Translations under genes and position numbers: made by a program | Part shown: positions 31,705 to 50,129 of the stretch, piece by piece | Layout: the number at the start of each line of letters is the position of its first letter | How positions within the stretch are numbered: the first letter of the stretch is position 1 | Notes under the pieces: model-generated | What the model saw: only the letters and a program-made list of their open reading frames with translations | What the model was told of the DNA's origin: nothing | The model's database searches: none | NCBI GenBank assembly: GCA_035532555.1 | Contig: DATKQS010000024.1 | Span: 11,225-75,224 of the forward strand | Direction: 5' to 3' | Length of the DNA stretch: 64,000 bases | Origin: Thermoplasmata archaeon | GTDB taxonomy: Archaea > Thermoplasmatota > Thermoplasmata > Lutacidiplasmatales > UBA184

Positions 31705-32954
31705 CGCAGCGCCTCCACGATGTCCAGGCGCATCGCCGAGCGCGCGGCGAGGCCGCTCGCGAGGCAGGCGAGCGCCAGCACGCCGGCCGCGATCAAGCCG
31801 AGCAGGATCGGGTCGTACGTCGCGAGCGACGCGGCCTGCTTCACGGCGCCCGTCCCGTACGCCGCGAGGATCGAGATCACGATCACCCCGAGCGCCGTAC
31901 CGCCGACGATCCCGGCCGCCGCGAGAGCCTCTCCGCGGGCGAGAATGCCGACCGCTATCCAGCGGGGCGGCAGACCGAGGGCCCGGCGGATCCCGATCGA
32001 ACGACGCTCCGACTCCACGCGCCGGATGAGGACGATGGCGAGAAAGATGAGCCCGACCGCAAGACCCACGGAGGACAGGGCCAGATAGAACCCGGTCAGG
32101 ATCGCGTTGGCGTTCTCGAGTTGCTGCGCCTGCTGCAGCTGGGTGGTGACGCCGTAGTACGGGACGAGCGACTGGATCTGAGCGGCGACCGCATTGATCT
32201 GGGACGGATCGTTCTCGGCGGTCCCGCTCAGAGCGACCTGGACCGTGTCCGAGGCGTCGAGGAGGGAGGAGGGAGTCGCGCTCGTCCGCGCCCAGCCCGT
32301 CAGCACTTGGAGATCGGACAGGGGAACGATCACGGCGAACGCCCCGGTCGGGCCCAGAAGGGATGGCGGGACTCCGAACACCCCGGTGACGCGGTAGGCG
32401 GTACCGAGGCTCTGATTCGCGGAGGGCGACAGCACGATCGACTGGCCGACCCGGATGCCCGACGCGGCCTCGAACGGGGTGGAGATGAGGACATCGAGGG
32501 TCGTCGGCCCCGCGTACGTCCCGTTGGCGTAGTGGATCAGGTCGGTCGGATCGCCGAGCGGCAGCGGAGACGGAAACAGGCCGGCCTCGGATGGGCCGAG
32601 GGTCGGAGTGAACTGATCGGGGATGACCCCCTCCGCCAGCACCGCGGTCGGGGTGATGCCTCCGGCGTAGATGTCGATCGGAACGCTGAGCACCGGGGAG
32701 GAGGCCGCGACGCGCGGGATCGCATTGAACTCCGAAACGAGCCCATGGGACAACGAGACCCCGTGCATCCCGGCCGACGACACCGAGATCACGTACCCGG
32801 TTTGCTGCAACTGGGCAATCTCGTGCGCCGACACTCCTCCGCCCACCGATACGAGGATCACGGGGAGGGCTACCGCGACCGCGATCGCGATCGCGGCGAG
32901 CACGATCTGTAGGCGGGAGTGGCGGGTCGGGCTCCGCCAGGAGATCGATCTCAT
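31701..32954 (-). CDS. ABC transporter permease, FtsX/MacB-like
   Basis: N-terminal TM, large periplasmic loop, C-terminal FtsX-type 3-TM bundle. 4-nt overlaps with both neighbours. Confidence 0.75.
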   Translation of the reverse strand: MRSISWRSPTRHSRLQIVLAAIAIAVAVALPVILVSVGGGVSAHEIAQLQQTGYVISVSSAGMHGVSLSHGLVSEFNAIPRVAASSPVLSVPIDIYAGGITPTAVLAEGVIPDQFTPTLGPSEAGLFPSPLPLGDPTDLIHYANGTYAGPTTLDVLISTPFEAASGIRVGQSIVLSPSANQSLGTAYRVTGVFGVPPSLLGPTGAFAVIVPLSDLQVLTGWARTSATPSSLLDASDTVQVALSGTAENDPSQINAVAAQIQSLVPYYGVTTQLQQAQQLENANAILTGFYLALSSVGLAVGLIFLAIVLIRRVESERRSIGIRRALGLPPRWIAVGILARGEALAAAGIVGGTALGVIVISILAAYGTGAVKQAASLATYDPILLGLIAAGVLALACLASGLAARSAMRLDIVEALR

Positions 32955-34258
32955 GGCGCGCGCAGCTCCTCGGCGATCGGCAGCTGCATTGCCCGGGCGG
33001 CCGGCGCGATGCCGGCGACGAGGCCTATCGCGACGACGATCGCGACGCCTGTCCCGATCACCCCGAAATCGAAGGAGACGAAGGAGAACCCGGCCGGGAG
33101 CCCGCTGACTCGCTGGAGCAGGATGATGTTGAGCGCGTTGGTGGCGAGGAAGGCGAGCGGCAATCCGATCGCGAGACCGATGAGGGAGAGGAGGACCGAT
33201 TCCTCCACGACCATCCGCCCGACGGAGGCTCGCGTGTGGCCGATCGCGCGACGCAGCGCGATCTCCCGGGAGCGATCGTCAACGCTCATCAGGACGACGG
33301 TGGTCGTGAACAGCGCCGCCACCACGAGACCGATCGCGCCGACGATCTCCCCGAACGTGCGGTAGAGCGAGACCGCGTCCTGGATGGCCCCCAGGATGCT
33401 CTGGAGCGTGAAGACGCTCAGTTGGGGGAACGCTCCTGCGATCCGGGTCGCGTCCGCGGATGGATTGGATGCGTTGTATAGGTGGATGAGGATCAGCGAG
33501 GCGTAGTCCGTCGACGCGTGCGCGCTTCCGAGCATCGTCTGGAGCTCGGAGAGGTAGAAGAACCCGAGGAACGCCGATGGCAGAAGCCAGAAGGGCCCCG
33601 AGATGCCGACGACCCGGAACCCCGTCGCCTGAGCATACCATCCTTGCACCTGCGTGGGACCCGAGGCAGACGATGGGCTCGCCCACACGAGGTCGCCCAC
33701 GTCCACATGCATCACCGACGCGAGGCCCTGATCGAGCACGACCTCGCCGGTCGCGGGGCCGTTGTACGTCCCGTTCGCGTAGTGGGGATCTCCGGGGTAG
33801 GTGAACCCGGGTCCGGAGTAGAGCGTCGGGACCTCGATCCCGGTGTTGTCGGAGGGAATCCAGCCCACGGATCCCGATCCGGTCAGGGCCCACGCGCTCG
33901 GGATCGCGCTGCCGTTTTGAGAGCTGTTCGCGGCGGCCCATAATGACGCATTCCCGAACACGAGATCGCTGAGGAGCCACGGGCTCGCGACCTCGACGTT
34001 GGAGTCGGTCGCCGGGATCTGCTTCGAGAGGGGGTGCGCCTGCAGGATGGGGGGGAAGGTCGACGAGGAGAGGCTCGTGTTCGCGCTCGTCGAGAGCAGA
34101 TCGATGCCGCTCGATGTGGCCAGCTGGGTCGAGTTCGTCTGGATGCCCGAGGAAAGGGCGAGGAGGAGGACGACCAGTGCGGCCGCAAGACCGATGCCGA
34201 GCGACGCCAGGCTCGAGCGACCGGGTCTTCGCCGGATCGCATCGAAGGCCGGGTGCAC
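32951..34258 (-). CDS. ABC transporter permease, FtsX/MacB-like (second permease)
   Basis: Same architecture as 31701..32954, with C-terminal ...IALRRAIGHTRASVGRMVVEESVLLSLIGLAIGLPLAF... Confidence 0.75.
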   Translation of the reverse strand: MHPAFDAIRRRPGRSSLASLGIGLAAALVVLLLALSSGIQTNSTQLATSSGIDLLSTSANTSLSSSTFPPILQAHPLSKQIPATDSNVEVASPWLLSDLVFGNASLWAAANSSQNGSAIPSAWALTGSGSVGWIPSDNTGIEVPTLYSGPGFTYPGDPHYANGTYNGPATGEVVLDQGLASVMHVDVGDLVWASPSSASGPTQVQGWYAQATGFRVVGISGPFWLLPSAFLGFFYLSELQTMLGSAHASTDYASLILIHLYNASNPSADATRIAGAFPQLSVFTLQSILGAIQDAVSLYRTFGEIVGAIGLVVAALFTTTVVLMSVDDRSREIALRRAIGHTRASVGRMVVEESVLLSLIGLAIGLPLAFLATNALNIILLQRVSGLPAGFSFVSFDFGVIGTGVAIVVAIGLVAGIAPAARAMQLPIAEELRAP

Positions 34259-34274
34259 GGCTACCTCGCCCGAC

Positions 34275-35195
34275 CTACGACTCCGATGGTCGACGGAGCT
34301 CGCCGAACGTCGTCTCGTGCGAGGATTCGACGTTGTACTTGTGGATCGACTCTTCGCTGACGGTTCCTACGCGCACGACGACGTGGTCCGGTATCTTGGG
34401 AAACCGGGCGGGGAGATCGGCGAGCAGATCGCGCATCACGTCCTCGACGAACTTCGGATTGCGGTGGGCGTTCAGGACGAGCTGGGCCTCGTCTCCGCGC
34501 TTGAGGATCGCGTAGGTCGGCGAGGACTGGGCGTGCTCGATTGCCTCCAACAGATGCGTGGCATCGACCTCGATCCCCGGTGGGAGCTCGAACAATAGAC
34601 GCGTGCGGTTGCGCTGGTTGTGGGTGATCATCGGCAGACCCTTCAGCGAAGGATCCGCCAGCAGCGGGTACTCGGCCGTCAGGCGCTCGCGGCACGTCTC
34701 CATCGCGCAGGGACACGCCGTCATCCCGACGGCCTCGGCGCCGATGCCCCGGGTCAGGGTCACCTGGCCGTCGGCCCCCCGGTGGGCGCGGGTCTCGGCG
34801 AGGATGGTGAAATCCTCGAAGCTCTCTCGCCCCGGAGCGATCCCCTTCCTGAGGAAGAACTCCGCCTCCGCACTGACGGTCGCGTCGTTCGCGTATTGGT
34901 GCCGTACGAGGAGCTCCTCGGCGATCTTGGCGCACGCGGCCTCGAAGCTCTCCACGGGCTTCTGCGCGGTCCAGTCGACGATCTCCGCCAGGAGCTCCGC
35001 GTTCCGAGAGAGATCGGATCCCTTGCGGTGGGCCGGAAGGTCGACCGCGACGCTGAAGCTCGCGCTGAGGACGTGGTCGATCCCGTCGCGGATGACGTGG
35101 ATCGGTTTGCGGATCCCGGTGATCCCGACCTGGCGGAGCTCGTACCGCCCGCGCGTCGGCGCCATCGCGTGGACGTCCTTCATCGGTCGCTCCAC
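34275..35195 (-). CDS. mptA: GTP cyclohydrolase MptA (FolE2 / GTP cyclohydrolase IV family)
   Basis: 306 aa. GITGIRKPIHV..., GMTACPCAME Cys motif, and length typical of FolE2/MptA. Confidence 0.65.
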   Translation of the reverse strand: MERPMKDVHAMAPTRGRYELRQVGITGIRKPIHVIRDGIDHVLSASFSVAVDLPAHRKGSDLSRNAELLAEIVDWTAQKPVESFEAACAKIAEELLVRHQYANDATVSAEAEFFLRKGIAPGRESFEDFTILAETRAHRGADGQVTLTRGIGAEAVGMTACPCAMETCRERLTAEYPLLADPSLKGLPMITHNQRNRTRLLFELPPGIEVDATHLLEAIEHAQSSPTYAILKRGDEAQLVLNAHRNPKFVEDVMRDLLADLPARFPKIPDHVVVRVGTVSEESIHKYNVESSHETTFGELRRPSES

Positions 35196-35289
35196 GAGAA
35201 GAGGGTCTTTAACTCGTTCCCCCGGCGCTCTAGCACGGACACCCGGCGGGAGTACGCCTTATACGAAGCGTGCCGGTGTACACCTTCGT

Positions 35290-35688
35290 ATGTCCGAAGA
35301 CGTGCCGTCCCCTCCCGTCGCTCCCGCCAGTACACCCGCTTCCGCGCCCGGGGCTTCCCCCGTGGTCACGGGGCAGGGCGGGCTCTACGCGGAACGGGAA
35401 GCGAAACTCGTCGCCGAACTCAAGAAGATCTACGACCCGGAGATCCCGATGAACATCGTCGATCTCGGCCTCATCTACGGGTTCGATTGGACGGGCGATG
35501 ATGTCGTCCTCCGAATGACCCTGACCGCGCCCGGCTGCCCGGTCGCCGGGATCCTCGCCGACGAGATCAAGGCCGCGATGGAGAAAGTGCCCGACGTGCA
35601 CTCCGCCAAGGTCGATATGATCTGGGATCCCCCCTGGACGCCGGACCGGATGAGCGACTTCGCGAAACGCCAGTTCGGATACGCGTGA
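35290..35688 (+). CDS. DUF59-domain protein (MIP18/SufT-like Fe-S cluster assembly factor)
   Basis: YDPEIPMNIVDLGLIYGFDW...MTLTAPGCPVAGIL...IWDPPWTPDRMSDFAKRQFGYA. Start at MSEDVP (ATG 35290). The longer ORF from 34558 is antisense overlap of mptA. Confidence 0.75.
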   Translation: MSEDVPSPPVAPASTPASAPGASPVVTGQGGLYAEREAKLVAELKKIYDPEIPMNIVDLGLIYGFDWTGDDVVLRMTLTAPGCPVAGILADEIKAAMEKVPDVHSAKVDMIWDPPWTPDRMSDFAKRQFGYA

Positions 35689-35735
35689 TCCCCCCGGCGA
35701 ACCGTTAAGGCAGCCGACCGGTCGGACAGGCTCGC

Positions 35736-36422
35736 ATGCCCGGAATCGAGAGCGAGTGGCGCAAGGCTATCGAGGAGGAGCGCGCGCTCAAGGACGAGTT
35801 CATGGCCCGTCATACGGAGTCACCGTTCGTGGCCGAACGGGTTCCCTTCAACCCTCTGAACTACTTTCCGGTCGACGCCAAGTACCGCCTGCCGGCGCGG
35901 CTCGAGCGCCGAGCGACCCCCGAGGAGGCGTTCCTGCGCACCAACCGCGACGGTTCCGCCGTCATGCGGTACCTGGGGGACCTGGTCTTCTCCCTGGAAG
36001 GACACCGCCATCGTCTTCGGGTCTACCACGCGGGGGAGGGAGTAGGGACGAGCGTCTTCGTACCGTTCCGCGACCGCACGAGCGGAAAGGAGTCCTACGG
36101 ACCGGGACGCTACCTCGTCTTCACCTTGACAGAAGACGACCGCTACGATCTCGATTTCAACGCCGCGTTCAATCCGTACTGTGCGTACACGGACGCCTAC
36201 GAATGTGGCTTCCCGCCCGCCGAGAACGATCTGCCGATCGCCATCCGGGCCGGGGAGAAGGCCTGGTTGAAAGACGCGAACCCGAGCTCGCCCTCCGGCG
36301 CGATCCTCGAGATGACTCGCAGGCAGCTAGCCGCCCGGGCGCGCAAGCCGGCGCCGAAGACGCCGGCCAAGGCCCGACCGCGCCGCGCAACGACGGCGGG
36401 CCGGCGCCGTACTCGCTCCTGA
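35736..36422 (+). CDS. DUF1684-domain protein
   Basis: WRKAIEEERALKDEFMARHTESPF...FNPLNYFPVD..YRL.ARLE.....L..NRDGSA..Y matches the DUF1684 signature. Confidence 0.65.
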   Translation: MPGIESEWRKAIEEERALKDEFMARHTESPFVAERVPFNPLNYFPVDAKYRLPARLERRATPEEAFLRTNRDGSAVMRYLGDLVFSLEGHRHRLRVYHAGEGVGTSVFVPFRDRTSGKESYGPGRYLVFTLTEDDRYDLDFNAAFNPYCAYTDAYECGFPPAENDLPIAIRAGEKAWLKDANPSSPSGAILEMTRRQLAARARKPAPKTPAKARPRRATTAGRRRTRS

Positions 36423-36536
36423 GCGGGAAAGACTCAAGCCACGCCATCGTATTGCAATCGCCGACGGCTGTGGAGTCAGCCGCCGCGCTCACGCGCGGGA
36501 ACCGCCCTCGACGCCAATGACTCCTGGGAGGAGGAA

Positions 36537-36980
36537 ATGGGTGGAGCAAGGCGGAACGTGACACGTGCCGAGCAGAGCGTGTCCTCTGAGAAGATCGCCC
36601 TTTCGGCGGAACTACGCAGGGCGCTTGCGCCTTGGATCGACGTGGACGCAGTGGATGGGGAGGCGTTCGAGGCGTGGCTCTTCACGGTGCTCGCGATCCT
36701 TCCTCGCCCCGACTCACCCGCGGCCGTGAAGGACGGGGATCGGGTCCGGGCTCTCTCTCTCGCGCTCGTCCACGCGGCGCAGGAGCGCGCGGTGAGCCAC
36801 TTTCAAGCGGCCGAATATTTCCGCGACAACCAGATGCTTGCACGACGGGTCAAGGCCTTGGAGGCGATCCTGAGGGCAGCGAAACAGCGGGGATTCGCGA
36901 GCCCGGAGCCCACCGAAGATGCCCTCGGAAGCCGCGCCGCTGCCCGGTACCTGCCTCGCGGGAACGAATCCGAACCGTAG
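36537..36980 (+). CDS. Hypothetical protein
   Basis: 147-aa ORF with protein-like composition and no recognisable family. Confidence 0.35.
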   Translation: MGGARRNVTRAEQSVSSEKIALSAELRRALAPWIDVDAVDGEAFEAWLFTVLAILPRPDSPAAVKDGDRVRALSLALVHAAQERAVSHFQAAEYFRDNQMLARRVKALEAILRAAKQRGFASPEPTEDALGSRAAARYLPRGNESEP

Positions 36981-36994
36981 ACCTCCGTCGGCGC

Positions 36995-37630
36995 CTATAG
37001 CTGCGGGATGATGGCGATGGCTCCGTTGAGCACAAACTGAATCGCGACCGCCGCGAGCAACAGGCCGAAGATCCGGGTCATCGCCATGACGCCCACCCGG
37101 CCGAGGCCGCGCAGGATGATCTGGCCGTACCGGAAGATTACGTACGTCGCGATCCCCACGATCACGATCGCGATGAAGGTCGCCGAGATGCCCAGAGCGT
37201 CGCTCGACGCGCTCGACTCATAGATCATCACGGTCGAGATCGCGCCGGGGCCGGCGAGGAGCGGGATCGCGATGGGGAAGACCGCGACCTCGTCCCGTGC
37301 CTGGGCCGCGTCCTCCCGATCGGCGTGCGTGAGCTTGGTCGGTCCAATCTCCCCCCGCAGCATGTCGTAGGCGATGATGAACAACAGGATCCCGCCGGCG
37401 ATCTCGAACGCTGGGAACCCGAACCCGTAGGCCGTGAACAGGAACCGACCGACCAGGGTGAAGGCGACCAAGATCCCCGTCATGATCAGGACGGCTCGGC
37501 GCAGGATCCGCTCTCGGTCCTCCGGGGAGAACTCGCTCGTCAGACCGACGAAGAACGGGAGCGTTCCGACCGGGTCCACGACGACGAACGTACTGGCGAC
37601 GACCGCCAGGAGGAAGCCGAGATCGTTCAT
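36995..37630 (-). CDS. MarC-family (UPF0056) integral membrane protein
   Basis: MNDLGFLLAVVASTFVVVDPVGTLPFF... and six TM helices, a typical MarC pattern. Confidence 0.8.
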   Translation of the reverse strand: MNDLGFLLAVVASTFVVVDPVGTLPFFVGLTSEFSPEDRERILRRAVLIMTGILVAFTLVGRFLFTAYGFGFPAFEIAGGILLFIIAYDMLRGEIGPTKLTHADREDAAQARDEVAVFPIAIPLLAGPGAISTVMIYESSASSDALGISATFIAIVIVGIATYVIFRYGQIILRGLGRVGVMAMTRIFGLLLAAVAIQFVLNGAIAIIPQL

Positions 37631-37712
37631 CGTGGACGCCTCCCTCGTTCAGAGGGTCGGTAGCCCTTCTTTAAGCGTTACTCTGCCGGCCGTGCGGCGG
37701 CAGGGCATGGGG

Positions 37713-38495
37713 CTAGCGGACACCCACCAGGACCCGGTTATCGAGATCCTGCCAGAGAACGCCGACCTCGCGGAAGCCCGCCGTGACCAGCGCGCGCCAG
37801 TGCAGATTCAATCCCGAGGCGGGGTCGTTGCCGTGCGCGTGCGGGTATCGACGCTCGTGCTCGGCCCACTCTTCCCCGAGGCCGGGCTCCTTCGAGACCT
37901 CCCGCCACCACTCTGACCACGGCCGAGCATCGGCCAGGGCACGGTCGCGAGCCCGGTGATGACGGATCTCCCCGGCGAGGCGAACGATCCGGCTCTTGCT
38001 CCCCGGGTCCGCAGGCAGACTATCCCCGTTGAGGAAGATCGCCCCCGGTCGAAGTCGTCGCGCAAGTCCCTTGTAGAACCGGCGAAGCTCGGGAGGCTTC
38101 AGCCAATGCAGCGCGGTCGTCGAGACGGCCGCGTCGAAGCGCCCGCGGGGCACCGATCGGTCCCAATCCGGAGCCCGCAGGTCCGCATCGACCCACGTCA
38201 ACCGATCGTGGACGGTTCCGAGCCCGTTCCGACCGATCGCGAGCAGGACGGGATCGTGGTCGATCGCGACGACCCGGGCGCCGGGGCAGCGTCGGAGGAC
38301 CCGTTCCGAGAGAGAGCCGGTGCCGCAGCCGATGTCCAGCGCGCGGAATCGGGACGGGAACGCGACCGACAGGATCTCGGTCATCGCCTCGAACCGCGCC
38401 TCGCGCTCGGGGATGTGCAGCGCCTGCATCTCGTCCCAGCTCTGCCGCAGGGCCTTCCAGTTCGGCGATCGGGTCCGAGTTCGCGTTCGTTCCAT
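37713..38495 (-). CDS. Class I SAM-dependent methyltransferase
   Basis: Motif I RALDIGCGTGSLSERVL and motif II ARVVAIDHDP. Start at MERTRTR (ATG complement 38493-38495). The ORF extension to 39932 is an artefact. Confidence 0.75.
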   Translation of the reverse strand: MERTRTRTRSPNWKALRQSWDEMQALHIPEREARFEAMTEILSVAFPSRFRALDIGCGTGSLSERVLRRCPGARVVAIDHDPVLLAIGRNGLGTVHDRLTWVDADLRAPDWDRSVPRGRFDAAVSTTALHWLKPPELRRFYKGLARRLRPGAIFLNGDSLPADPGSKSRIVRLAGEIRHHRARDRALADARPWSEWWREVSKEPGLGEEWAEHERRYPHAHGNDPASGLNLHWRALVTAGFREVGVLWQDLDNRVLVGVR

Positions 38496-38569
38496 GGTGT
38501 CGGATGGACCGGCGAGGAGATACCCTTGACTCGGTGCGGCTTCCGCAGGTGGGAGGCCGGGCTCGAGGT

Positions 38570-39787
38570 CTACAGCCCGGGAAGCGCCACGACGGCGCCG
38601 AAGGGGACCCGCACGGGTTGTGGCATGACCCAGAGCACGGGGAACGGAGGAGCTCGCTCCGGGAACGTGCCCTGCCCATCCGTGAGGTACACCAACCCGG
38701 TCGGACGGATCGCGCCGGAGCGCGAGGCCCACTCGAACGCGGGGCGGAAATCCGTACCTCCGCGCCCGTGGAACTCGAGAGGGACGGGAACCCCGGGTCG
38801 GATCTCTCGCACGGATCGGACTGCGTCGTCCGCCTCGAGGACCACCAAGCGGCCGGATCCACCCACGAGATCCGCGATGCCTTGGACCTCGGAGAGGAAT
38901 GCGCGCGCGCTCGCCGGATCGATGGAACCGGAGGTGTCGATCGCGATCGCGAGGGTGCCCACGGACCGGGTCCGAGTGCCGGGGAGGATGAGCCCGACCG
39001 AAAGATAGCGTCGGTTCGGCGGGATCCACGAGTAGTCTTGTGCGTACGCACGCTGCAGGAAGCGGACCAGCTCCGATCGCCAGTAGAGCTGCGGGCGGCC
39101 GATCGATGCGAGGATCTCTTCGGCCGCCTCTCGGCCCTCCCCCGTGTAGGCCATCGACTGCGCCGCCTGGACGATCCGGTCGCGCCAGCGCTCCTGGAGA
39201 TCGCGGCCCGAGCTCGCTTCCCCGGACGGTTCCTGCCAGCACTCGGCGATGTCCGCTACGATCGCATCCTCCGGCGGGTTCTCCTCGGGCGGCGGCAGGA
39301 GGGCGTAGATCTCTTCGGTCGAGCGATCCCGTGCGAGATCGACCGGTGCCTTGAGCGGCAGGACCTCGCGATAGTCGTAGGCGCTCCGAAGGAACAGCGG
39401 GACGAGGGAGAGATCGCTCGCGCTCTGCCACTTGCGCGCGTCGCGCCCTTCGCCCCGCCACGGGTGCCCGAGAGCCCAATGCAGCAGCACGTGGAGGAAG
39501 TGGCCCTCGAGCCGCATCGGGGGCGCCGTTCGAACGAAATCGGGGCGGTAGTACAGGACCCGACCGTCGCACGCGATGCTGCGCACCGTCGTCGACTCCT
39601 TCCAGGGCATTCCGAGTGCGAGTACGCCGAGGAACGGGTTGCGCATGAGGAAGTGGAAGCGCGCGCCCTCCAGGATCCGCGCGGCTTCGAGATCGAGAGT
39701 CGACTCGAGGGGTGCGACGACCGGCGACTCCGGCCCACGAGATGGGCGCGCCGCGCGAGGGCCGGACCGCCGTCGCGCTCGGGCCAT
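38570..39787 (-). CDS. VWA-domain protein with N-terminal DUF2201 (putative metallopeptidase-like) domain, a CoxE/ViaA-like MoxR partner
   Basis: N-terminal ...FLHVLLHWALGHPW... is DUF2201-like. C-terminal AIAIDTSGSIDP... is the vWA MIDAS motif (DxSGS). ATG overlaps the MoxR stop (ATGA at 39785-39789). Confidence 0.7.
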   Translation of the reverse strand: MARARRRSGPRAARPSRGPESPVVAPLESTLDLEAARILEGARFHFLMRNPFLGVLALGMPWKESTTVRSIACDGRVLYYRPDFVRTAPPMRLEGHFLHVLLHWALGHPWRGEGRDARKWQSASDLSLVPLFLRSAYDYREVLPLKAPVDLARDRSTEEIYALLPPPEENPPEDAIVADIAECWQEPSGEASSGRDLQERWRDRIVQAAQSMAYTGEGREAAEEILASIGRPQLYWRSELVRFLQRAYAQDYSWIPPNRRYLSVGLILPGTRTRSVGTLAIAIDTSGSIDPASARAFLSEVQGIADLVGGSGRLVVLEADDAVRSVREIRPGVPVPLEFHGRGGTDFRPAFEWASRSGAIRPTGLVYLTDGQGTFPERAPPFPVLWVMPQPVRVPFGAVVALPGL

Positions 39788-40848
39788 CAGCCCAGCGCCT
39801 CGACGTTCTGCGCCGCCCACGCGCGGAACGCCGGCAGCTGGGCGGCGGAGGGGTTCGCGCGCACCAGGTCCCGTATGAGCAGTACCTCGAGCTCGCGGAG
39901 ACCGTTCTTGCCGAGCGCTTGCGCGTATTCAATCATGCGCGGCACCCGGCCCTTCTCGCGCGCGTAGCGAGCCACGAGCCCGGTGACGACCGCGTAGCCC
40001 GTCGCAGGGTCCGGCGGGATCAGGTCGGCCCCGGCGATGATCTTCTCGAGACTCGGCCGCGCGTTGAGCGACTTGCGGAAGAGATCGAACTCGGTCGCGG
40101 GGCCCGCTCCGACGCATCCCTCGATCGCCGCTCGCATCTCCCGGTCTCCGAGATCGAGCGCGAGGACCCGGCTGACCATCTCCCAGGTGCGTGGGCAGGG
40201 GTACGCCTTCGAGCTCCCCGGTGACTGGGAGAGAAGCGTGGGCCGGAACTCCAGGAATGCGATGACGGACGGATCGATCCCGGCGCCGAACGCCCAGCTC
40301 TTCCAGCTCTCGAGGTCGGGGACGAGTTCGAGGTGTTCGAACCGGGAGAGCAGCGCGGAGGGCATCGCGTGAGCGATCGACTGGTCGCTCTCCCGGTTCC
40401 CGGCCGCGACCACGTACCAACCCGGAGGAAGGGAGTACTCCCCCACCTTGCGGTCGAGAACGAGCTGGTAGACGGATGCTTGTACGAGCGGAGGAGCCGC
40501 ATTGAGCTCGTCCAGGAACAGGATCCCCTTGCCGCCCGACGGCAGGAACTCCGGGGGCGCCCAGCGGACCTTCCCCCGATACGGCACCGGGAGCCCGCGA
40601 AGATCGACCGGATCCATCAGGAGCATCCTCAGATCGATGACCCGTAGGTTCCCGGCCTCCGCGATCTGGCGGACGATCGAACTCTTGCCGACGCCGGGGG
40701 GCCCCCAGATGAAGATCGGCGGCCACTTCGCCTCCAGATGCGCTTCGAGCACGCGACGCAGCTCCGGAGCCGTGACTCGACCCCCGTACTCTCCCGCGGA
40801 GAGCCCGGCCTCGTCGAGTGCGGTGGCGAGCGAACCCGGGTCGCTCAC
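39787..40848 (-). CDS. MoxR-family AAA+ ATPase (AAA_5)
   Basis: Walker A IWGPPGVGKSSIVRQIAE, Walker B ILFLDELNAAPP, sensor VVAAGNR. Confidence 0.85.
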   Translation of the reverse strand: MSDPGSLATALDEAGLSAGEYGGRVTAPELRRVLEAHLEAKWPPIFIWGPPGVGKSSIVRQIAEAGNLRVIDLRMLLMDPVDLRGLPVPYRGKVRWAPPEFLPSGGKGILFLDELNAAPPLVQASVYQLVLDRKVGEYSLPPGWYVVAAGNRESDQSIAHAMPSALLSRFEHLELVPDLESWKSWAFGAGIDPSVIAFLEFRPTLLSQSPGSSKAYPCPRTWEMVSRVLALDLGDREMRAAIEGCVGAGPATEFDLFRKSLNARPSLEKIIAGADLIPPDPATGYAVVTGLVARYAREKGRVPRMIEYAQALGKNGLRELEVLLIRDLVRANPSAAQLPAFRAWAAQNVEALG

Positions 40849-41849
40849 GGATCCTCGGTGTCGCCGGCGCGCACGTTGGGGAGCTCTTCGGTCAACGCCA
40901 TCGTCACGAGCTCCGTAGAGAAAGCGCTTCGCAGGCGATCGCGTGCGCGGGCGCAGCGGGCCGCGAACGCGCTCCCCTCCGCGGCGAGCGCGGGCATCGC
41001 GTGGCCGACGTAGGTGCCGAGCGTGGCCGCGAGGCCGGTCGGGAGGTGCGCGTCATCCGCGTCGAGCTGGAAGTACAGACGGCTCGGAGACCCATCCCAC
41101 GACATATCCCCGAGGCGAGGGAAACGCAGGAATCGCAGTTCGACGCCGTCCTCGTATCGGATCGTTCGCCCGCGCAGGGCCGATTCGATCGGTCCCCTCG
41201 GGAGATCGTGCACAAGGGCCCGGAAGAGGCGGGCATCTTCCCCGCTCGGGACCTTCGCAGACCCTCCGGGAATGTCGATGTGCGGAGGAATGGGTTCGAT
41301 GAGGGCATCGAGCATCTTGGCGAACCCCGCCACCCCAGCCTCCCCTTGGCTGATCCCAACGGACTCCTCGTCGGGCACGATGGGAGACTCCTCGGCGAGA
41401 TCCGCGAGGAAGGGCTTGAGCTCCTCGAAGCGCCCGGCGATTCGTTGGCAGCAGCCGACCCACCGGGCGAGCCAGGCCGAGGGGGAGGCGGCAGTCGCGG
41501 CTGGATCGAGCGTGGAGGTGGGGACATCGGCGATGGCGGTGACCGAGGCCCACGGTGCATAGCGTCGGCCGACCTCGATCGCCTGTACTGCGAGGACCAA
41601 TTCTCGAAGCTCCGCGAAGAACCGCTCTGCGGTGTCGGTCTCGCCGGCTTTCTCTTCATAGAAGCTGATCAGCGCCGGCTTCGTCCAGGCGGATTCGCCT
41701 CCCTCCCCAGAGAGATGCGCGAGCCAACGGATCAGTCCGGGGCCGACCTCGAGCGAGCGGATCGCACGATCCGCTTCGATCCAAGCTCCGGCTCCTTCCG
41801 GTACCGATGGGCCGTGGGAAGTCGTCGCCTTCGAAGGGGGCTTGGGCAC
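40845..41849 (-). CDS. Hypothetical protein, first gene of the MoxR/VWA operon
   Basis: 334 aa with no recognisable domain. 4-nt overlap with the MoxR start. Confidence 0.5.
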   Translation of the reverse strand: MPKPPSKATTSHGPSVPEGAGAWIEADRAIRSLEVGPGLIRWLAHLSGEGGESAWTKPALISFYEEKAGETDTAERFFAELRELVLAVQAIEVGRRYAPWASVTAIADVPTSTLDPAATAASPSAWLARWVGCCQRIAGRFEELKPFLADLAEESPIVPDEESVGISQGEAGVAGFAKMLDALIEPIPPHIDIPGGSAKVPSGEDARLFRALVHDLPRGPIESALRGRTIRYEDGVELRFLRFPRLGDMSWDGSPSRLYFQLDADDAHLPTGLAATLGTYVGHAMPALAAEGSAFAARCARARDRLRSAFSTELVTMALTEELPNVRAGDTEDP

Positions 41850-41859
41850 GTCGACCTCC

Positions 41860-42516
41860 TCAGGCGGCGCGGACGGGCGCGGCTCCGGACGAGCCCTCGC
41901 GCAGGAACTTGATCCCCACCACGATCACCCAGAGGAGCGCCGGCGCGACGACCAGCCGCTCCCACCCGCCGTGACCGAGGAGCCAGGAGAGGTTGAGGCC
42001 GAACATGACGAGCGCGATCGCGGTCACGAAGAATCCCACGATCGACGGGATCGTCCACGCGTGCCAGTGGGAATCATCCCAGCCGGCGAGGCCCACGAAG
42101 AGTAGGGTGAACCCGGCCGCGATGAACGCGAGCGAGGCGGCGGATATGTGAATCGGATAGTTGAGGTGCTCGTTGAAGATCCCGACGCCGATCGCTCCAA
42201 TGCCGACGAGCGCGTAGGTGATGACCCCGAGGCGTCCGAACGCTCCGGGCGGCACTCCCCGGCGCATCGCCATCAGGCCAATCAGGACGAGCGCGCCGAG
42301 CGCGATCGCCGAGAGGTTGAGCATCCAATAGTACGGGAACGCCACGAGCGACGGGTCGCCGAGATTGCTGATCGTATTGTTCTGGAAGCTGTAGTTCTGG
42401 CCCTGCGCGATCAGGATGAGCGCCTCCGCGGTCGTCACGACGGCGAACTGGATGGGGCCGACAATCATCGCGATCGCCCCCGTGCGCTGGCCCTGGTCGA
42501 GGCGGCTCGTGCTCAT
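41860..42516 (-). CDS. DUF998-like integral membrane protein (6 TM)
   Basis: Hydrophobic profile. Lies 10 nt upstream of the MoxR-operon leader gene. Confidence 0.5.
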   Translation of the reverse strand: MSTSRLDQGQRTGAIAMIVGPIQFAVVTTAEALILIAQGQNYSFQNNTISNLGDPSLVAFPYYWMLNLSAIALGALVLIGLMAMRRGVPPGAFGRLGVITYALVGIGAIGVGIFNEHLNYPIHISAASLAFIAAGFTLLFVGLAGWDDSHWHAWTIPSIVGFFVTAIALVMFGLNLSWLLGHGGWERLVVAPALLWVIVVGIKFLREGSSGAAPVRAA

Positions 42517-42544
42517 GATCCGAGGCGTTCCGAGCCGACCACCA

Positions 42545-43291
42545 TCATAAGCTTCCCGGCGAGGAAGCCGTCGCAGGGGCAGGGGTTCGTCGTGGGCGGA
42601 CTGGGCGCTCCCGGTGGGTGAGCCCGCCGCTGTGCCAGGTCACGATGATGATCGTGTAGAATGCGTACCCGGCGTACGTCGGATTGTACTGGGCGATGCT
42701 CGCGGCCACCGAGAAGATGCCGGCAATCAGGAAGGAGGTCTGGGCGGTCCTCTCGAGGGAGAGCCGATCGGCCGTCGGGTGGGCGAGCTCGGGCTTGCCG
42801 CTGACGTGCAGCGCGATCAGGCCCATCGTCATTCCCGCCGCGCACTGGACCGCGGAATACAGCGCGACCGTGACCCCCGTGGACCCGTAGAGGCCGTTGA
42901 GGCCGGTCACGAACGGCGTCACCGCGATGAACATGAGGAACGCGATGTTCGTCCAGTTGAGAATGGCGTCGACGCCGCGAATGTGCCGGAAGATCCGGCG
43001 GTGGAGCGTCCACCACACGGCGATGACGAGGAATGCGACGACGTAGCTGATGAACAGGCTCGTCTCCGAACCAAGGAATCTGGAGATGGCCACGCCGGTG
43101 GGCAGGCCGGCGTAGGGTGGGGAGTTCAGGGCCACCGCCGAGGGAATCGACAGGTTGATGACGAGCAGGGTCATCGCGAACGCGAATACGCCGTCGCTCA
43201 AGGCGAGGAGGCGGCCGGTGTCCTCGGTGATCGCGACCGAGTCGGCGGTGCGGATAAAGTCCGGTACGAGCTCGTCCTTCTCCCGCCCCAC
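42545..43291 (-). CDS. DUF1211 / TMEM175-family putative K+ channel
   Basis: RLLALSDGVFAFAMTLLVINLSIP matches the R-x-x-FSDGVFAIAITLLVLEL family signature. 6-TM profile. Confidence 0.7.
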   Translation of the reverse strand: MGREKDELVPDFIRTADSVAITEDTGRLLALSDGVFAFAMTLLVINLSIPSAVALNSPPYAGLPTGVAISRFLGSETSLFISYVVAFLVIAVWWTLHRRIFRHIRGVDAILNWTNIAFLMFIAVTPFVTGLNGLYGSTGVTVALYSAVQCAAGMTMGLIALHVSGKPELAHPTADRLSLERTAQTSFLIAGIFSVAASIAQYNPTYAGYAFYTIIIVTWHSGGLTHRERPVRPRRTPAPATASSPGSL

Positions 43292-43404
43292 GAAATTCCG
43301 GGAGCGTCTGCCGGTACTTCAACCGCATGGCCCATGGCACGCGCGCCGGCGTGCTGAAGTCCTCCGGCAGAGCCATTAAATCGCCCGCCGGGCTCCGCCT
43401 GGGA

Positions 43405-43842
43405 ATGGTAGCAAAGCGCACGGCCCAGGCGGTTTGGGAAGGGGATCTGGCGAAGGGACACGGTCACGTCACCGGGACGAGCGGGGGACTTCCCGATGTC
43501 GCGGTGAGCTGGGCCTCGCGTACCGAAGCCTCCGGGGGAAAGACGAGCCCCGAAGAGCTCCTCGCGGCGGCGCATGCGGCCTGCTTTTCGATGGCGCTCT
43601 CCGCGGGTCTGGGGCGGATGCAGAAGCCTCCCCAGCGGCTCGAGGTAAGCGTCACCGTCACGTTCGACAAGGTCGGGGAAGCGTGGAAAGTGACGACGAG
43701 CGAGGTCACGGTCGTCGGCACGGTTCCCGGCATTTCCGCCGAGGAGTTCGAGAAGGCCGCTCAAGGTGCCGGACAGAACTGCCCGATCTCCGGAGCGCTG
43801 AAGGGCAACGTGGCCGTCACGGTCCACGCGAAGCTCGCCTAG
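43405..43842 (+). CDS. OsmC/Ohr-family peroxiredoxin-like protein
   Basis: ...SPEELLAAAHAACFSMALSAGLG...GISAEEFEKAAQGAGQNCPISGALKGN; the OsmC fold has two conserved Cys. Start at MVAKRT. Confidence 0.7.
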   Translation: MVAKRTAQAVWEGDLAKGHGHVTGTSGGLPDVAVSWASRTEASGGKTSPEELLAAAHAACFSMALSAGLGRMQKPPQRLEVSVTVTFDKVGEAWKVTTSEVTVVGTVPGISAEEFEKAAQGAGQNCPISGALKGNVAVTVHAKLA

Positions 43843-43849
43843 ACTGCAA

Positions 43850-44500
43850 TCACGCCGGCTCGAGGTCGGCGAAGACGAACCCGTCGCGCTCCACGACCGC
43901 TCCCGGTCGCACGGCGACGGGGGCCCGGAACATCGGGCCGTCGGAGACGAACGTGTGGAACTCTCCGTTCTCTCCGCAGGGATCGACCCCGGCCGGCAGT
44001 TCGCACAGGAGGGTCTCGTCGAACGACCGCCCCGCGAACGTCCCGGGAAGCTTCCGGGAATCGACGGCGACGATCGTGGCGCGCATCCCACTCGCGATCA
44101 TCTCGTGGGCGAGGTCGCGGGTGGCGCGTCCCCATAGGGGGAAGACCGGTCGGATCCCGGTCCCGCGGAGCTTGTCCTCTCGATAGCTGCGGATATCCTC
44201 GAGGTAGAGATCCCCGAAGACGATCCGGCTCACCCCTTCCCCCCTCAGTCGCGCGATCATCGCTCCCATCCGTTCCTCGTAGATCGCGTTGGGGCACGGG
44301 AACGGGATCGATACCGGATAGAGCGGAAGCCCGGCCGCATCCGCTTGGCGTTCGAGCAGTTCCTCCCGCACCCCGTGCATCGATACCCGCGCGAACGTCT
44401 CCGTGATCGTCGTGAGCAAGCCGACGATCTCGAGTTCGCCCGCACGACGGGCCAGATGGAGCGAGTACGCGGAGTCCTTTCCGCTGCTCCAGGAGACCAC
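43850..44500 (-). CDS. PP-loop ATP pyrophosphatase of the Dph6 / MJ0570 (DUF71) family
   Basis: MVSWSSGKDSAYSLHLA PP-loop (SGGKDS). Archaeal diphthine-ammonia-ligase-like domain. Confidence 0.6.
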   Translation of the reverse strand: MVSWSSGKDSAYSLHLARRAGELEIVGLLTTITETFARVSMHGVREELLERQADAAGLPLYPVSIPFPCPNAIYEERMGAMIARLRGEGVSRIVFGDLYLEDIRSYREDKLRGTGIRPVFPLWGRATRDLAHEMIASGMRATIVAVDSRKLPGTFAGRSFDETLLCELPAGVDPCGENGEFHTFVSDGPMFRAPVAVRPGAVVERDGFVFADLEPA

Positions 44501-44574
44501 GGCCCGCGGGCGATCCTCCGATCGTCGCTCGACGCCGGTCGGGTCCGTCGCACGCGTCGTCGTGCCTCCTCCCC

Positions 44575-46209
44575 TCAGAAGTCCCCGAGACTGCGCTGGG
44601 CGTCCCGGCGGGCCGCCGAGGCGGCGCTCGCGGTGGTGGGTCGGGCCGGCGCGGCCGCCGCTCGCGGCACTTCCTCGTCCGGCGCCAGGAGCTCCTCGAC
44701 GGCGCGGCTCTCGGGCTCCACGTGCCGCAGGTAGGCGATCTCCTCTGGGGTCAGCTCGAGGTCCCGGACCAGAGAGCGTTGGGTGTTGCGGAGAGGGCTG
44801 CCGGTGGGTCCGCTCGACGCCGGCCGCAAGAAATCCTCCAAGAACGGAAGACCGACCTCACGCACCTTCTCCCGCGAAAGATGGAACGCTCCACCGTACT
44901 TGCCCGCGATCGATTCCCGCAAGGCCCGCGCGCCCCTCGAGCGGCCCATCTCCCCGAGGAACTCGGGAAAGTGAGCCGGTCCGGTCGAGGTGCCGGGGCG
45001 ATCGCGGACGCGGATGCCAACTCCGCCGGTCATCAGCTCGGAGGCGTAGCTCCACAGTCCGTAGTTCCTCCAGCGACGCGCGCGGTTCAGATACAGATCG
45101 GCGTGGGCGAGAGGGACGTAGGCCGCGGCGCGGTGGGCCGCGTCGACCGAGAACCGTGGTAGATTCTCCTCGATCCATGGAAAGAGATCTTCCGGCGTGG
45201 CATCCACCCGGTCCCGTACCTCGGTGCTTCGGTAGAATCGCGCTTGGGTCAGGGCCTCCTCGGTTACGAAGGCGAGATCGGAGCCAAGATCTCGGTTTCC
45301 GAGCGCGCTCATCTGCGCGGGCCCGGGAGGTAGGGGCGAGATCGCATCGACGTCGTTGAGCGCTGCGCGCAGATCGCCGTGCGCTCGGTGGACGATGCTT
45401 TCGATGGCCCGGCCTTCGATCGCGAGTCCTTCCCGGCGGGCGATGCGGGTGATGCAGGTACGCACGTCGACATCCGAGATCGGGTAGAAGCGGATGCGCG
45501 CGACCCCCGTTCGCAGGGCCGCGGAGTGCCGCGTCAATTCCCGTTCGTCATTGACGATCAGCAGGAGGGGCTGTCGGGTCGTTCGCACGAGCTCGGCGAT
45601 CGCACCGATTCCGCCTCGATCGGAAAGATCGATCTTGCGGGAGCTTCCTCGCCAGTCCGCGAGATCGCGTTGGGCCGGGGCGAGCGCCGTCCAGCGATGA
45701 TTGCCCGGGACGCGGGGGACCGCTTCCCAGCCTTCGAACGCGGGCGGGGCTCCGGCCCTTCCGAGCCCCCACGTGACGTTCAGGGCGTCGACGGTCCCGT
45801 ACCGCCCGCGGAGGTACTCCCGCCAGCCGATCGGAGCGGGCGCCTTGCGCGCTTGCTCGCCGAGCCGGCCAGTAAGGCAATCCGCCTCGTCGAGCACGAT
45901 CAAGGTCCGTTGGTGCACCGGGTCGAACGGTCCCTCCGATAGAGTGCGGAGCCCGGCGGCCCGGCCCGCGACCTTCTGGATGGCATCGGCGTTGCGGGCG
46001 TCGGAGGCGTTCATCTCCACGACGCCCCACCGTAGATCTGCGGCGAGCGCGAGCGCCGCCGACGTCTTTCCCACTCCGGGAGGCCCGGACAGGATGGCGG
46101 CCCGGCGCGTGGGAGGCGGCCCGGGCCGGGTCCAGCCCTCGGCCCAGTTCCGCAGCTCGGCGCGGGCCCGGGGGTTGCCTGCAAGATCGTCGAGCCGGAT
46201 CGGTCGCAT
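44575..46209 (-). CDS. rfcL: Replication factor C large subunit
   Basis: MRPIRLDDLAGNPRARAELRNWAEGW..., ILSGPPGVGKTSAALALAADL, NASDARN, LIVLDEADCL. Start at Met284 of the long ORF (ATG complement 46207-46209). Confidence 0.8.
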   Translation of the reverse strand: MRPIRLDDLAGNPRARAELRNWAEGWTRPGPPPTRRAAILSGPPGVGKTSAALALAADLRWGVVEMNASDARNADAIQKVAGRAAGLRTLSEGPFDPVHQRTLIVLDEADCLTGRLGEQARKAPAPIGWREYLRGRYGTVDALNVTWGLGRAGAPPAFEGWEAVPRVPGNHRWTALAPAQRDLADWRGSSRKIDLSDRGGIGAIAELVRTTRQPLLLIVNDERELTRHSAALRTGVARIRFYPISDVDVRTCITRIARREGLAIEGRAIESIVHRAHGDLRAALNDVDAISPLPPGPAQMSALGNRDLGSDLAFVTEEALTQARFYRSTEVRDRVDATPEDLFPWIEENLPRFSVDAAHRAAAYVPLAHADLYLNRARRWRNYGLWSYASELMTGGVGIRVRDRPGTSTGPAHFPEFLGEMGRSRGARALRESIAGKYGGAFHLSREKVREVGLPFLEDFLRPASSGPTGSPLRNTQRSLVRDLELTPEEIAYLRHVEPESRAVEELLAPDEEVPRAAAAPARPTTASAASAARRDAQRSLGDF

Positions 46210-46324
46210 CCGCTCTGACAGAGGCAGACGTGCGGACGCGGACCGGCCGGGTTCGACCATCGGGCAGGTAGTTCTCGCGGCGCTTAATAGGGCCGGGCGG
46301 GCTCCAAGCTCCGGGCCCTTCCGC

Positions 46325-47299
46325 ATGGAGCTTCGTCGGATTCTCGGCGGCGATCGGGAGGCCTCCATCCTCGGCCTCTCGCTCGACTCGATCTGGACGT
46401 CCATCCACCCCGCCGAACCCGCGGCACGCCGGCTCGTGTCCATCGCCCAGGAAGGGGGCGCTCGACTCTTCGACACGGCCGACTCGCTCCATCCGAAGCG
46501 TACGGAGGCGATGCTCGACCGCGTCGATCGATTCGAACCGGGCACGCTGTGGATGCTTGAGCGATCTCCTTCGGCGCTTGGAGTCGATCCGGCATCGCGG
46601 CGCTTCGACCGCGGCGATGCCGGGATCGAAGCTCGCCTCCGAAGGTCCTTGGCGGAGATCCCCACCCGGCCCGACCTGGCCCGCTGGGTCCAATGGCGCG
46701 GGAGCGCCTCCCATCCGGAATGGGAGGACGAGGCCACCGCGTGCCTCCGGGAGCTCCAACGGGCCGGGGAGATCGCAGGGTGGAGCCTGCGTCGGTCCGC
46801 GGTGGCTGAGTCGACCGCAGTTCCTGCGGGAGTGGCGCTGAGCGGGGAGATCTCGCTGTTGGACCGAACGTGGGCCGGCATTCTTCGGACGACCGAACGA
46901 ACCGCCTCGTTCTTTGCACGGGACCCAATGGCCGCGGGTCGTCTCGATGGAACGAGATGGGATCGCTCCCTCAGTGCGACGGGAGGCCGGAGCGTGCCCG
47001 CTCCATTGAGGCGCTGGCAGGAGGAGGTGGCGCCGGTCCTTGAATTCGGATTCCTCACCGATGGACATCGCCGGACCCTGGCGCAGGCGGCGCTTCAGTA
47101 CGTCGCGGGCCTACCGGGCGTCGCATCGATCCTTGTCCCGCTCCCGCCGGCGGAACGACTCGCGGAATTCCTCGCGTTCGCGAACGCACCCGGCCTCTCC
47201 GAACCGGAGAGCGATCGTATCTCCCGGTCGATGGAGTTGGGGCCGGAGGCGCCCGGAGCGGGTCGTCTTGAGCGCGTGGGATCTTCGAGTGAGCCATGA
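46325..47299 (+). CDS. Aldo/keto reductase family oxidoreductase
   Basis: MELRRILGGDREASILGLSLDSIW... is an AKR-like N-terminus. ATG 46325. The 5' part of the ORF from 45701 is antisense to rfcL. Confidence 0.5.
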   Translation: MELRRILGGDREASILGLSLDSIWTSIHPAEPAARRLVSIAQEGGARLFDTADSLHPKRTEAMLDRVDRFEPGTLWMLERSPSALGVDPASRRFDRGDAGIEARLRRSLAEIPTRPDLARWVQWRGSASHPEWEDEATACLRELQRAGEIAGWSLRRSAVAESTAVPAGVALSGEISLLDRTWAGILRTTERTASFFARDPMAAGRLDGTRWDRSLSATGGRSVPAPLRRWQEEVAPVLEFGFLTDGHRRTLAQAALQYVAGLPGVASILVPLPPAERLAEFLAFANAPGLSEPESDRISRSMELGPEAPGAGRLERVGSSSEP

Positions 47300-49567: not shown

Positions 49568-50056
49568 CGCCGGGCCGAGCTTCGTGTGGTTGTAACGGTT
49601 CGGGTGAGGCTCGGGCCAGACACCCCCGTTTCCCGTCCCCTGTTCTCTGCCCGACAACCCGCGATGAGCTGGGCGAGGTGGTGGGCTGAGGGCGGTCGGA
49701 TCTGGAGAACCTCGGATCGCTCGGGGTGGATGGGTCGGCCGGGGCCAGCGCGCCAGGAGGTATGGAGGTCGACTCGCTCATCTTGCTGGAGCGGCCGGAT
49801 GCCCGCCGATCGTTCCCGTGGTCCGTGGATTGAGGGGAGAGGTCGGAACCCTTCCCGCTCTCCTCCTGCTGCGGACGACACTCCACGGGCCGGTCGACGC
49901 AACGAGCCGCTTCGTTCGGAGTCGCGTCTTCGTCGCCAGCAGCACCGGCAGCGGAATCCTCCTCGCCCCCATCTCCGTGCGCCCCCTTGTCGAGTGCTCT
50001 GGCACGGCTTCGGGGCCTGAAGGGGATCGATCGCGCGACCCGCCCTCGCACGCGCG

Positions 50057-50129
50057 AGCCGCCGGAGAGGATTGAACTCCCGACCTGCTGATTACAAATC
50101 AGCCGCTCTACCAACTGAGCTACGGCGGC
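50057..50129 (-). tRNA. tRNA-Thr (anticodon TGT), 73 nt, no encoded CCA
   Basis: Reverse complement: GCCGCCG-TA-GCTC-AGTTGGTAGAGC-G-GCTGA-TTTGTAA-TCAGC-AGGTC-GGGAG-TTCAATC-CTCTC-CGGCGGC-T. The acceptor stem (7 bp), D, anticodon and T arms all pair. Confidence 0.85.

Follow-up and report, generated by a model that had tools for sequence, protein, structure and literature searches.

The window analysed here is a stretch of 64,000 nucleotides (nt) from contig DATKQS010000024.1 of a Thermoplasmata archaeon. At 37713..41849 it carries four co-directional genes, all on the (-) strand. They encode a protein that we call the leader, an AAA+ ATPase, a protein with DUF2201_N and DUF2201 domains of which the second is of the von Willebrand factor A (VWA) type, and a class I S-adenosylmethionine (SAM)-dependent methyltransferase (MTase). 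The first three genes form the cassette, or triad, that is the subject of this analysis. A preliminary description of this DNA had placed the four genes at the same coordinates, which was borne out. Its gene order, domain identities and intact metal ion-dependent adhesion site (MIDAS) also proved correct when Pfam and the motif coordinates were checked. The genes and their main features are listed in Table 1.

Table 1. Genes, motifs and other features of the cassette and its surroundings (window coordinates unless a locus is named; aa, amino acids).
Feature	Coordinates	Strand	Description
Leader	40845..41849	(-)	334 aa, GTG start, gene 1 of the triad
AAA+ ATPase	39787..40848	(-)	353 aa, GTG start, AAA_5-type
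DUF2201_N + DUF2201 VWA protein	38570..39787	(-)	405 aa counted from ATG
Class I SAM MTase	37713..38495	(-)	260 aa, Methyltransf_25
Spacer from DUF998 stop to leader GTG	41850..41859	(-)	10 nt, GGAGGTCGAC, contains GGAGG (read from sequence)
Walker A of ATPase, GPPGVGKS	40681..40704	(-)	G52, G54, K55 and S56 invariant (archaeal, bacterial and phage homologues)
Walker B of ATPase, FLDE	40507..40518	(-)	F111, L112 and D113 invariant, E114 nearly so
Zincin-like motif of DUF2201 protein, HVLLHWALGH	39464..39493	(-)	H99, H103 and H108 kept; catalytic Glu replaced by Val
MIDAS of DUF2201 protein, DTSGS	38924..38938	(-)	residues 284-288
Leader residues 95-113	41511..41567	(-)	RRYAPWASVTAIADVPTST, pattern RRYAPWAxxxAIxDxPxxT
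Protein disulfide isomerase (PDI)-like segment of leader	41370-41490		residues ~121-160, local match of ~30-60 residues
Jump in synonymous divergence (dS)	L005 11351-12846 vs window 36995-38495		MTase + MarC

The genes are tightly packed. A Shine-Dalgarno-like GGAGG lies 5 nt upstream of the leader GTG. The preliminary description had joined the first three genes by 4-nt overlaps. This holds for the leader and the ATPase, where the leader stop overlaps the ATPase GTG start by 4 nt (GTGA), but not for the ATPase and VWA genes, which overlap by 1 nt (TGATG) with the ATG start or by 34 nt with an upstream GTG at 39820. The gap between the VWA and MTase genes, put earlier at about 75 nt, measured 74 nt, and it widens to about 140 nt with the MTase start at Met23 that is chosen by many gene callers (238 aa). 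A mechanical open reading frame of 739 aa at 37713..39932 (-), whose frame is stop-free across the VWA gene, is an artefact of high guanine-cytosine (GC) content; the MTase is its last 260 aa only. In a scan for promoters and terminators the counts stayed at the level of the shuffled controls, with a bacterial consensus applied to an archaeal high-GC sequence. The membrane proteins reported to flank the genes (DUF998, TMEM175 and MarC) agree with Pfam.

Related loci were compared by tblastn with the window proteins as queries. The order leader, ATPase, DUF2201 was found in L001/L007, L002, L003/L009, L004, L005, L006, L008/L023 and L021, and on the truncated contigs L022 and L024 the ATPase follows the leader. 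The leader always lies directly upstream of the ATPase gene and, on contigs long enough to show it, of the DUF2201 gene as well. In the close relatives L004, L005, L006 and L021, whose leaders are 80-92% identical to that of the window, the synteny TMEM175-DUF998-triad-MTase-MarC is held to the contig limits. The divergent relatives L001/L007, L002, L003/L009 and L008/L023 have the triad only, with other flanks and no MTase, and their proteins are 69-75% (ATPase), 54-61% (DUF2201) and 45-49% (leader) identical to those of the window. The tight translational coupling of the leader and ATPase genes is retained, as they overlap by 4 nt in the window and L001 and by 1 nt in L002, and are separated by 5 nt in L003. 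The ratio of nonsynonymous to synonymous substitution rates (dN/dS) is 0.09-0.22 for all four genes of the window, which indicates purifying selection. The conserved unit is three genes (leader, AAA_5 ATPase and DUF2201), not four. The expected co-occurrence of leader and MTase with MoxR-VWA genes elsewhere was thus seen for the leader, at all loci with enough flank, and not for the MTase. These comparisons show that the cassette is chromosomally fixed in one Thermoplasmata clade from acidic environments, where one copy is inherited vertically within a neighbourhood of conserved housekeeping genes.

Among the flanking genes of these relatives, the TMEM175 homologue is split over several frames in L005 (6565-7243) and L025 (2897-3619), and the DUF998 homologue is split likewise in L022 (1234-1576). 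The split homologues are either frameshifted pseudogenes or assembly errors.

The preliminary description had taken the MTase as part of the operon module. In a functional operon of four genes, the MTase would be the fourth integral part, and it would methylate either the client or one of the components of the MoxR-VWA machine. The MTase gene is indeed on the same strand, 74 nt past the VWA gene, neither a promoter nor a terminator is recognisable in the gap, and the adjacency is retained in L004, L005, L006 and L021. However, these are just the close relatives, in which synteny is expected by descent, and the MTase is absent from the four divergent triad loci. The protein itself belongs to the class I SAM-dependent MTases by its Methyltransf_25 match (63.2 bits, cut-off 27) and its SAM motif DIGCGTG at residues 54-60, and had no equivalog-level match in NCBIfam. 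Its family, with 1733 hits, reaches far wider than the leader family. Two Thermoplasmata contigs reached via the MTase homologues, L019 and L020, carry the window backbone with an orthologous MTase beside MarC and no triad. Their shared genes are the RFC large subunit, OsmC, MTase, MarC, DUF1684, FeS_assembly_P, MptA and FtsX, at 53-84% amino acid identity. L020 additionally has DiphSyn and DUF998, and there the MTase directly follows DUF998. Window 32951-47058 is a syntenic backbone kept across divergent Thermoplasmata, in the order FtsX, MptA/GCHY-1, FeS_assembly_P, DUF1684, MarC, MTase, DUF998, OsmC, diphthine-ammonia ligase-like protein and RFC large subunit, while TMEM175 was found only in the close relatives of the window.

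Because the MTase occurs without the triad (L019 and L020) and the triad without the MTase (four divergent lineages, L001, L002, L003 and L008), the MTase is a backbone gene rather than a part of the module. It belongs to an ancestral DUF998-MTase-MarC backbone and adjoins the cassette by chance in one genus-level group. Divergence within the locus was also compared between L005 and the window. The dS is 0.08-0.23 for DUF998, leader, ATPase and VWA, and rises to 0.89 for the MTase and 0.64 for MarC. This discontinuity suggests a recombination breakpoint at the VWA/MTase boundary in L005, and it is consistent with separate histories of the two sides. The phyletic patterns largely refute the MTase as fourth component, and we regard the four-gene operon as highly improbable; the MTase should not be annotated as a component of the system. 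The position of the triad between DUF998 and the MTase may reflect an ancient insertion followed by rearrangement, or a loss in some lineages. The flanks of the triad hold no direct or inverted repeats of any note, and no GC anomaly was detected.

The DUF2201 protein has two domains in Pfam, DUF2201_N (PF13203, 88.2 bits, cut-off 23.2) followed by DUF2201 (PF09967, 91.8 bits, cut-off 26.4), and it matches phrog_1314 over its full length (1.4e-62). In the C-terminal domain the MIDAS is complete. D284, S286, S288 and D370 (LTDG) are invariant, and Thr345 (GGTDF) is nearly invariant. This domain in the AlphaFold2 (AF2) model matches integrin I-domains and VWA2, a paralog of ArnB (Foldseek probability 1.0, E-values to 4.6e-4). 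The predicted VWA fold with a complete MIDAS is confirmed by both the family alignment and the model. In a sequence-profile search of the DUF2201 protein against PDB, only VWA matches were obtained, together with a marginal M48 peptidase at an E-value of 0.58, so the zincin assignment of the N-terminal domain rests on Pfam and the histidine motif.

The preliminary description had suggested looking in that N-terminal domain for an HExxH-like metal site. The three histidine ligands of such a site are present (HVLLHWALGH), and all three are invariant or nearly so across the DUF2201 family, but the catalytic Glu is absent. The window protein therefore lacks the full signature of a putative zincin metallopeptidase, which is HExxH with the catalytic Glu and a third His. 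The same change runs through the Thermoplasmata DUF2201 clade, where all 17 of 17 proteins read H[VAIT]xxHxxxxH, that is, the Glu is gone and the three His are retained. Among the 103 other DUF2201 proteins listed, 94 have HExxH and about 9 have lost the Glu. Since the metal ligands are retained and the general base is gone, the simplest reading is that the N-domain of the Thermoplasmata clade would serve as a binding module rather than as a peptidase. The domain could also be a still-active protease, with a non-canonical base that is possibly supplied by the leader and with a substrate delivered by the ATPase. The strict retention of the three His ligands and the purifying selection on the domain fit this possibility, and the leader carries several invariant Glu and Asp that might provide a base. 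In contrast, all 17 proteins have Val, Ala, Ile or Thr in place of the Glu, and none of these residues is able to act as a base; the family alignment identified no compensating conserved acidic residue near the zincin motif. An active protease is accordingly quite unlikely in our judgement.

The ATPase is an AAA_5 protein in Pfam (35 bits, cut-off 22), and its AAA_3 score (24.0 bits) is under the cut-off of 27. When the family profile was compared with solved structures, midasin gave 4.7e-28, NorQ 1.3e-8 and CbbQ 4e-7, and the canonical MoxR structure 2r44 was a distant match at 7e-4. Because AAA_3 stays under its cut-off and midasin (Rea1), NorQ and CbbQ are the closest solved relatives, the ATPase is a MoxR protein in the broad AAA_5 sense only. 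The label MoxR given in the preliminary description is thus loosely correct and does not hold in the strict sense. Membership of the AAA_5 clade (midasin, NorQ, CbbQ and MoxR in the broad sense) is supported by the score, by Walker A and B, and by the sensor-1 Asn N151 and the Arg finger R169, both of which are invariant across the ATPase homologues. These invariant catalytic motifs support the prediction that the ATPase is active. The protein also matches phrog_1297 over its full length (5e-90; ATPase residues 25-352 against profile positions 9-353 of 356).

The leader is an acidic (isoelectric point 4.9), soluble protein. It had been described as having no recognisable domain, and this was upheld, with no match in Pfam (E<=0.01), NCBIfam, PADLOC or PHROGs. 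A word-indexed search among 5.8e9 proteins returned 14 homologues, and an HMMER profile search among 1.84e9 representatives returned 5 true relatives. Seven leader loci were found in 185,579 species genomes, all of them in metagenome-assembled genomes of Thermoplasmata or 'Methanobacteriota', and a metagenome scan gave 5 loci. The leader had no match in viral contigs and collections or in the phage database. It is restricted to one Thermoplasmata clade. The 14 homologues, the 54 invariant columns of the family alignment and the dN/dS of 0.15-0.22 against close relatives establish the leader as a real gene, and not as the artefact without conserved homologues that the preliminary description had allowed for.

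The fairly confident AF2 model of the leader (predicted local distance difference test score, pLDDT, 79.7; predicted template modelling score, pTM, 0.81) is a helical bundle with a small beta-sheet, and Foldseek found no fold match for it in PDB or BFVD (best E-values >1). Invariant residues cluster most densely at positions 95-113 of the leader, comprising R96, Y97, A98, P99, W100, A101, A105, I106, D108, P110 and T113. Residues 100-110 of this cluster have pLDDT <50 in the model, and they probably form a flexible loop that is modelled with low confidence. Strong conservation in a flexible loop is expected of docking motifs, which makes residues 95-113 a candidate docking motif and Asp108 a candidate ligand of the MIDAS.

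The leader profile weakly matches the active-site segment of thioredoxin/PDI proteins (WCGHCQRLxPxW), with PDIA6 at an E-value of 7e-4 and multi-thioredoxin proteins in the large search. Thioredoxin family membership, to which weak matches to PDI and TXNDC5 pointed, was rejected, because the Cys is unconserved, the segment is modelled as one long helix and there is no match to the thioredoxin fold. The resemblance of the PDI-like segment is therefore either confined to a local motif or a relic without clear meaning.

In end-to-end alignments, gp24 and gp25 of phage N4 prove homologous to the ATPase and the DUF2201 protein along their whole length. The ATPase is 32% identical to N4 gp24. N4 gp25 (L013, NC_008720.1, 3854-4996) scores 293 bits for DUF2201_N and 158 bits for the DUF2201 VWA domain. 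The phage pair, represented by PHROG 1297 and 1314 in Schitoviridae, shares with the cassette the order ATPase to DUF2201, the Walker A and B motifs, the MIDAS DxSGS and the zincin-like N-domain with three His. It differs in that gp25 retains HExxH with the Glu present (HELWH), in that N4 has no leader-like gene, and in that the pair consists of phage middle genes whereas the Thermoplasmata cassette is chromosomal. The literature lists the gp24 and gp25 genes as core genes and middle transcripts of N4-like phages and assigns them no function (PMC4193335, PMC2784036, PMC7650795). A literature search on DUF2201 with MoxR, COG3864 and DUF3150 likewise found nothing functional. Phage records with a DUF2201 homologue number 514, and plasmid records 105.

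N4 gp25, phrog_1314 and many of the 514 phage records are labelled 'HNH endonuclease'. The domain analysis of N4 gp25 gave no match to an HNH domain, and the label looks like a propagated mis-annotation.

The phage relationship raises the possibility that the cassette is what is left of an integrated virus or mobile element, in decay and without host function. The next-closest relatives of the Thermoplasmata ATPase and DUF2201 proteins, at 35-38% identity, are in phage-like contigs, and the cassette is missing from related genomes with the same backbone. Decay is, however, hard to reconcile with the dN/dS values of 0.09-0.22, with all motifs but the Glu being intact, or with the retention of the cassette in lineages where leader identity has fallen to 45%. 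Traces of integration are also lacking: no integrase was found, in addition to the missing repeats and GC anomaly, and the leader does not appear in the viral collections. We consider such a remnant very unlikely.

In bacterial plasmid, integrative and conjugative element (ICE) and prophage loci (L011, L015, L016, L017 and L026) the pair is accompanied by a DUF3150-like protein of about 295 aa. Its gene lies between the ATPase and DUF2201 genes, on the same strand, where both flanking genes are present. Of the 105 plasmids with DUF2201, 60 carry this gene (Burkholderia, Cupriavidus, Ralstonia and others), but only 3 of the 514 phage records do. These triads resemble the Thermoplasmata cassette in combining the two same core families with a tightly linked third protein of about 300 aa. 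In contrast, their third gene is in the middle of the pair while the leader is upstream of the ATPase, their DUF2201 proteins have an intact HExxH, and their context is a mobile element. No homology was detected between the DUF3150-like protein and the leader (hhalign probability 0.5%), and the hhalign probability was likewise <=0.5% for the leader and a 672-aa partner. This 672-aa partner accompanies P0110, a second DUF2201 protein without the Glu (HLxxH), which is found in L027 (539-5421) and L028 (2146-7028). The order there is a 672-aa protein with no Pfam match, an AAA_5 ATPase, DUF2201 and a 151-aa protein. The context of these loci looks cellular (FeoAB, GGDEF), and there is no relationship between the 672-aa protein and the leader. 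This single example suggests that chromosomal Glu-less versions of DUF2201 gain partners of their own.

Such a build recalls the ternary MoxR-vWA-VMAP conflict systems (Kaur et al. 2020, PMC7159879), to which the preliminary description had also pointed. In a reading along this line, an NTPase and vWA pair would work with a variable sensor or effector in conflict or defence. Like those systems, the cassette joins a MoxR-like ATPase and a vWA protein to a third protein that varies; this partner changes with the lineage (DUF3150-like on plasmids, 672 aa in L027/L028 and the leader here), and the nearest relatives of the pair are in phages and mobile elements. Unlike them, its vWA protein is a DUF2201 protein without a C-terminal effector, its host is an archaeon and its locus is not mobile. 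The leader is blank in Pfam, and no VMAP, iSTAND, FtsH, beta-propeller or effector domain was found. PADLOC gave weak P-loop and generic MTase-domain matches only and no system-level hit. The sole candidate catalytic domain is inactivated by the loss of the Glu. The cassette is moreover inherited vertically as one copy and is under purifying selection, in a housekeeping neighbourhood of equal GC content and without flanking repeats. No positive evidence for the conflict system was obtained, and a defence function is unlikely.

A further comparison is with the solved relatives of the ATPase. In midasin, NorQ/NorD and CbbQ/CbbO, a MIDAS-bearing VWA module captures a client for ATP-driven remodelling. 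By analogy with these machines, the ATPase ring of the cassette would use ATP to remodel a protein that is held by the DUF2201 adaptor. The adaptor would grip its ligand via the MIDAS metal, with an acidic side chain from the ligand completing the coordination, and possibly also via the non-catalytic zincin groove. The leader would be a dedicated client or co-adaptor, and it would dock most likely via its invariant loop RRYAPWAxxxAIxDxPxxT, with Asp108 as the residue offered to the MIDAS. This mechanism of remodelling and docking is inferred from the analogy. The cassette differs from the known pairs in that NorD and CbbO have no zincin-like N-domain and are not DUF2201 proteins, and in that no nor or cbb client genes are nearby, which leaves the orphan leader as the sole candidate client. 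We therefore favour, with moderate confidence, a clade-fixed cassette of three genes whose products make up a machine for ATP-driven remodelling, the adaptor being dead as a peptidase and the leader serving as client or co-adaptor.

Several points weigh against this explanation. The loss of the Glu is not strict proof that catalysis is lost. The chaperone analogy draws on distant relatives, because the literature gives no function for the gp24/gp25-DUF2201 family. Instead of being a client, the leader may act as a regulator or mimic a substrate. The extent of the transcription unit also blurs the boundary of the triad. Given the 74-nt gap and the lack of a recognisable promoter, the MTase may be co-transcribed, even if function does not call for it, and since the leader starts 10 nt past DUF998, the transcription unit in the window lineage may exceed the triad.

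Two elements are new here, namely a DUF2201 clade that lacks the Glu but has three His and an intact MIDAS, and a clade-restricted partner of 334 aa without family or fold match. The wider interest of the remodelling machine lies in the gp24/gp25-type pair, which is part of the core of N4-like phages and present in >500 phage and about 100 plasmid records with unknown function. If the explanation is true, the archaeal version, with a dead peptidase site and a single partner, offers a simpler system for finding the binding or remodelling targets of the pair, and the cassette is an example of a mobile-element module that has become a host gene set. A broader proposal can be put forward more tentatively, as possible but doubtful. 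In it, AAA_5-DUF2201 pairs of the N4 gp24/gp25 type would form a general, as yet undescribed class of machines with three components, of which the third is exchanged from lineage to lineage (the DUF3150-like protein on proteobacterial plasmids, the 672-aa protein in L027/L028 and the leader in Thermoplasmata). The archaeal cassette would then derive by exaptation from a virus or plasmid system and be peptidase-dead, and it would now remodel or hold a dedicated host protein of new fold that is docked through a contact between the MIDAS and the Asp of the leader loop.

Outside the cassette and its backbone, a tRNA-Thr(TGT) at window 50056-50129 (-) was identified by Rfam and ARAGORN as the sole RNA gene of the window.

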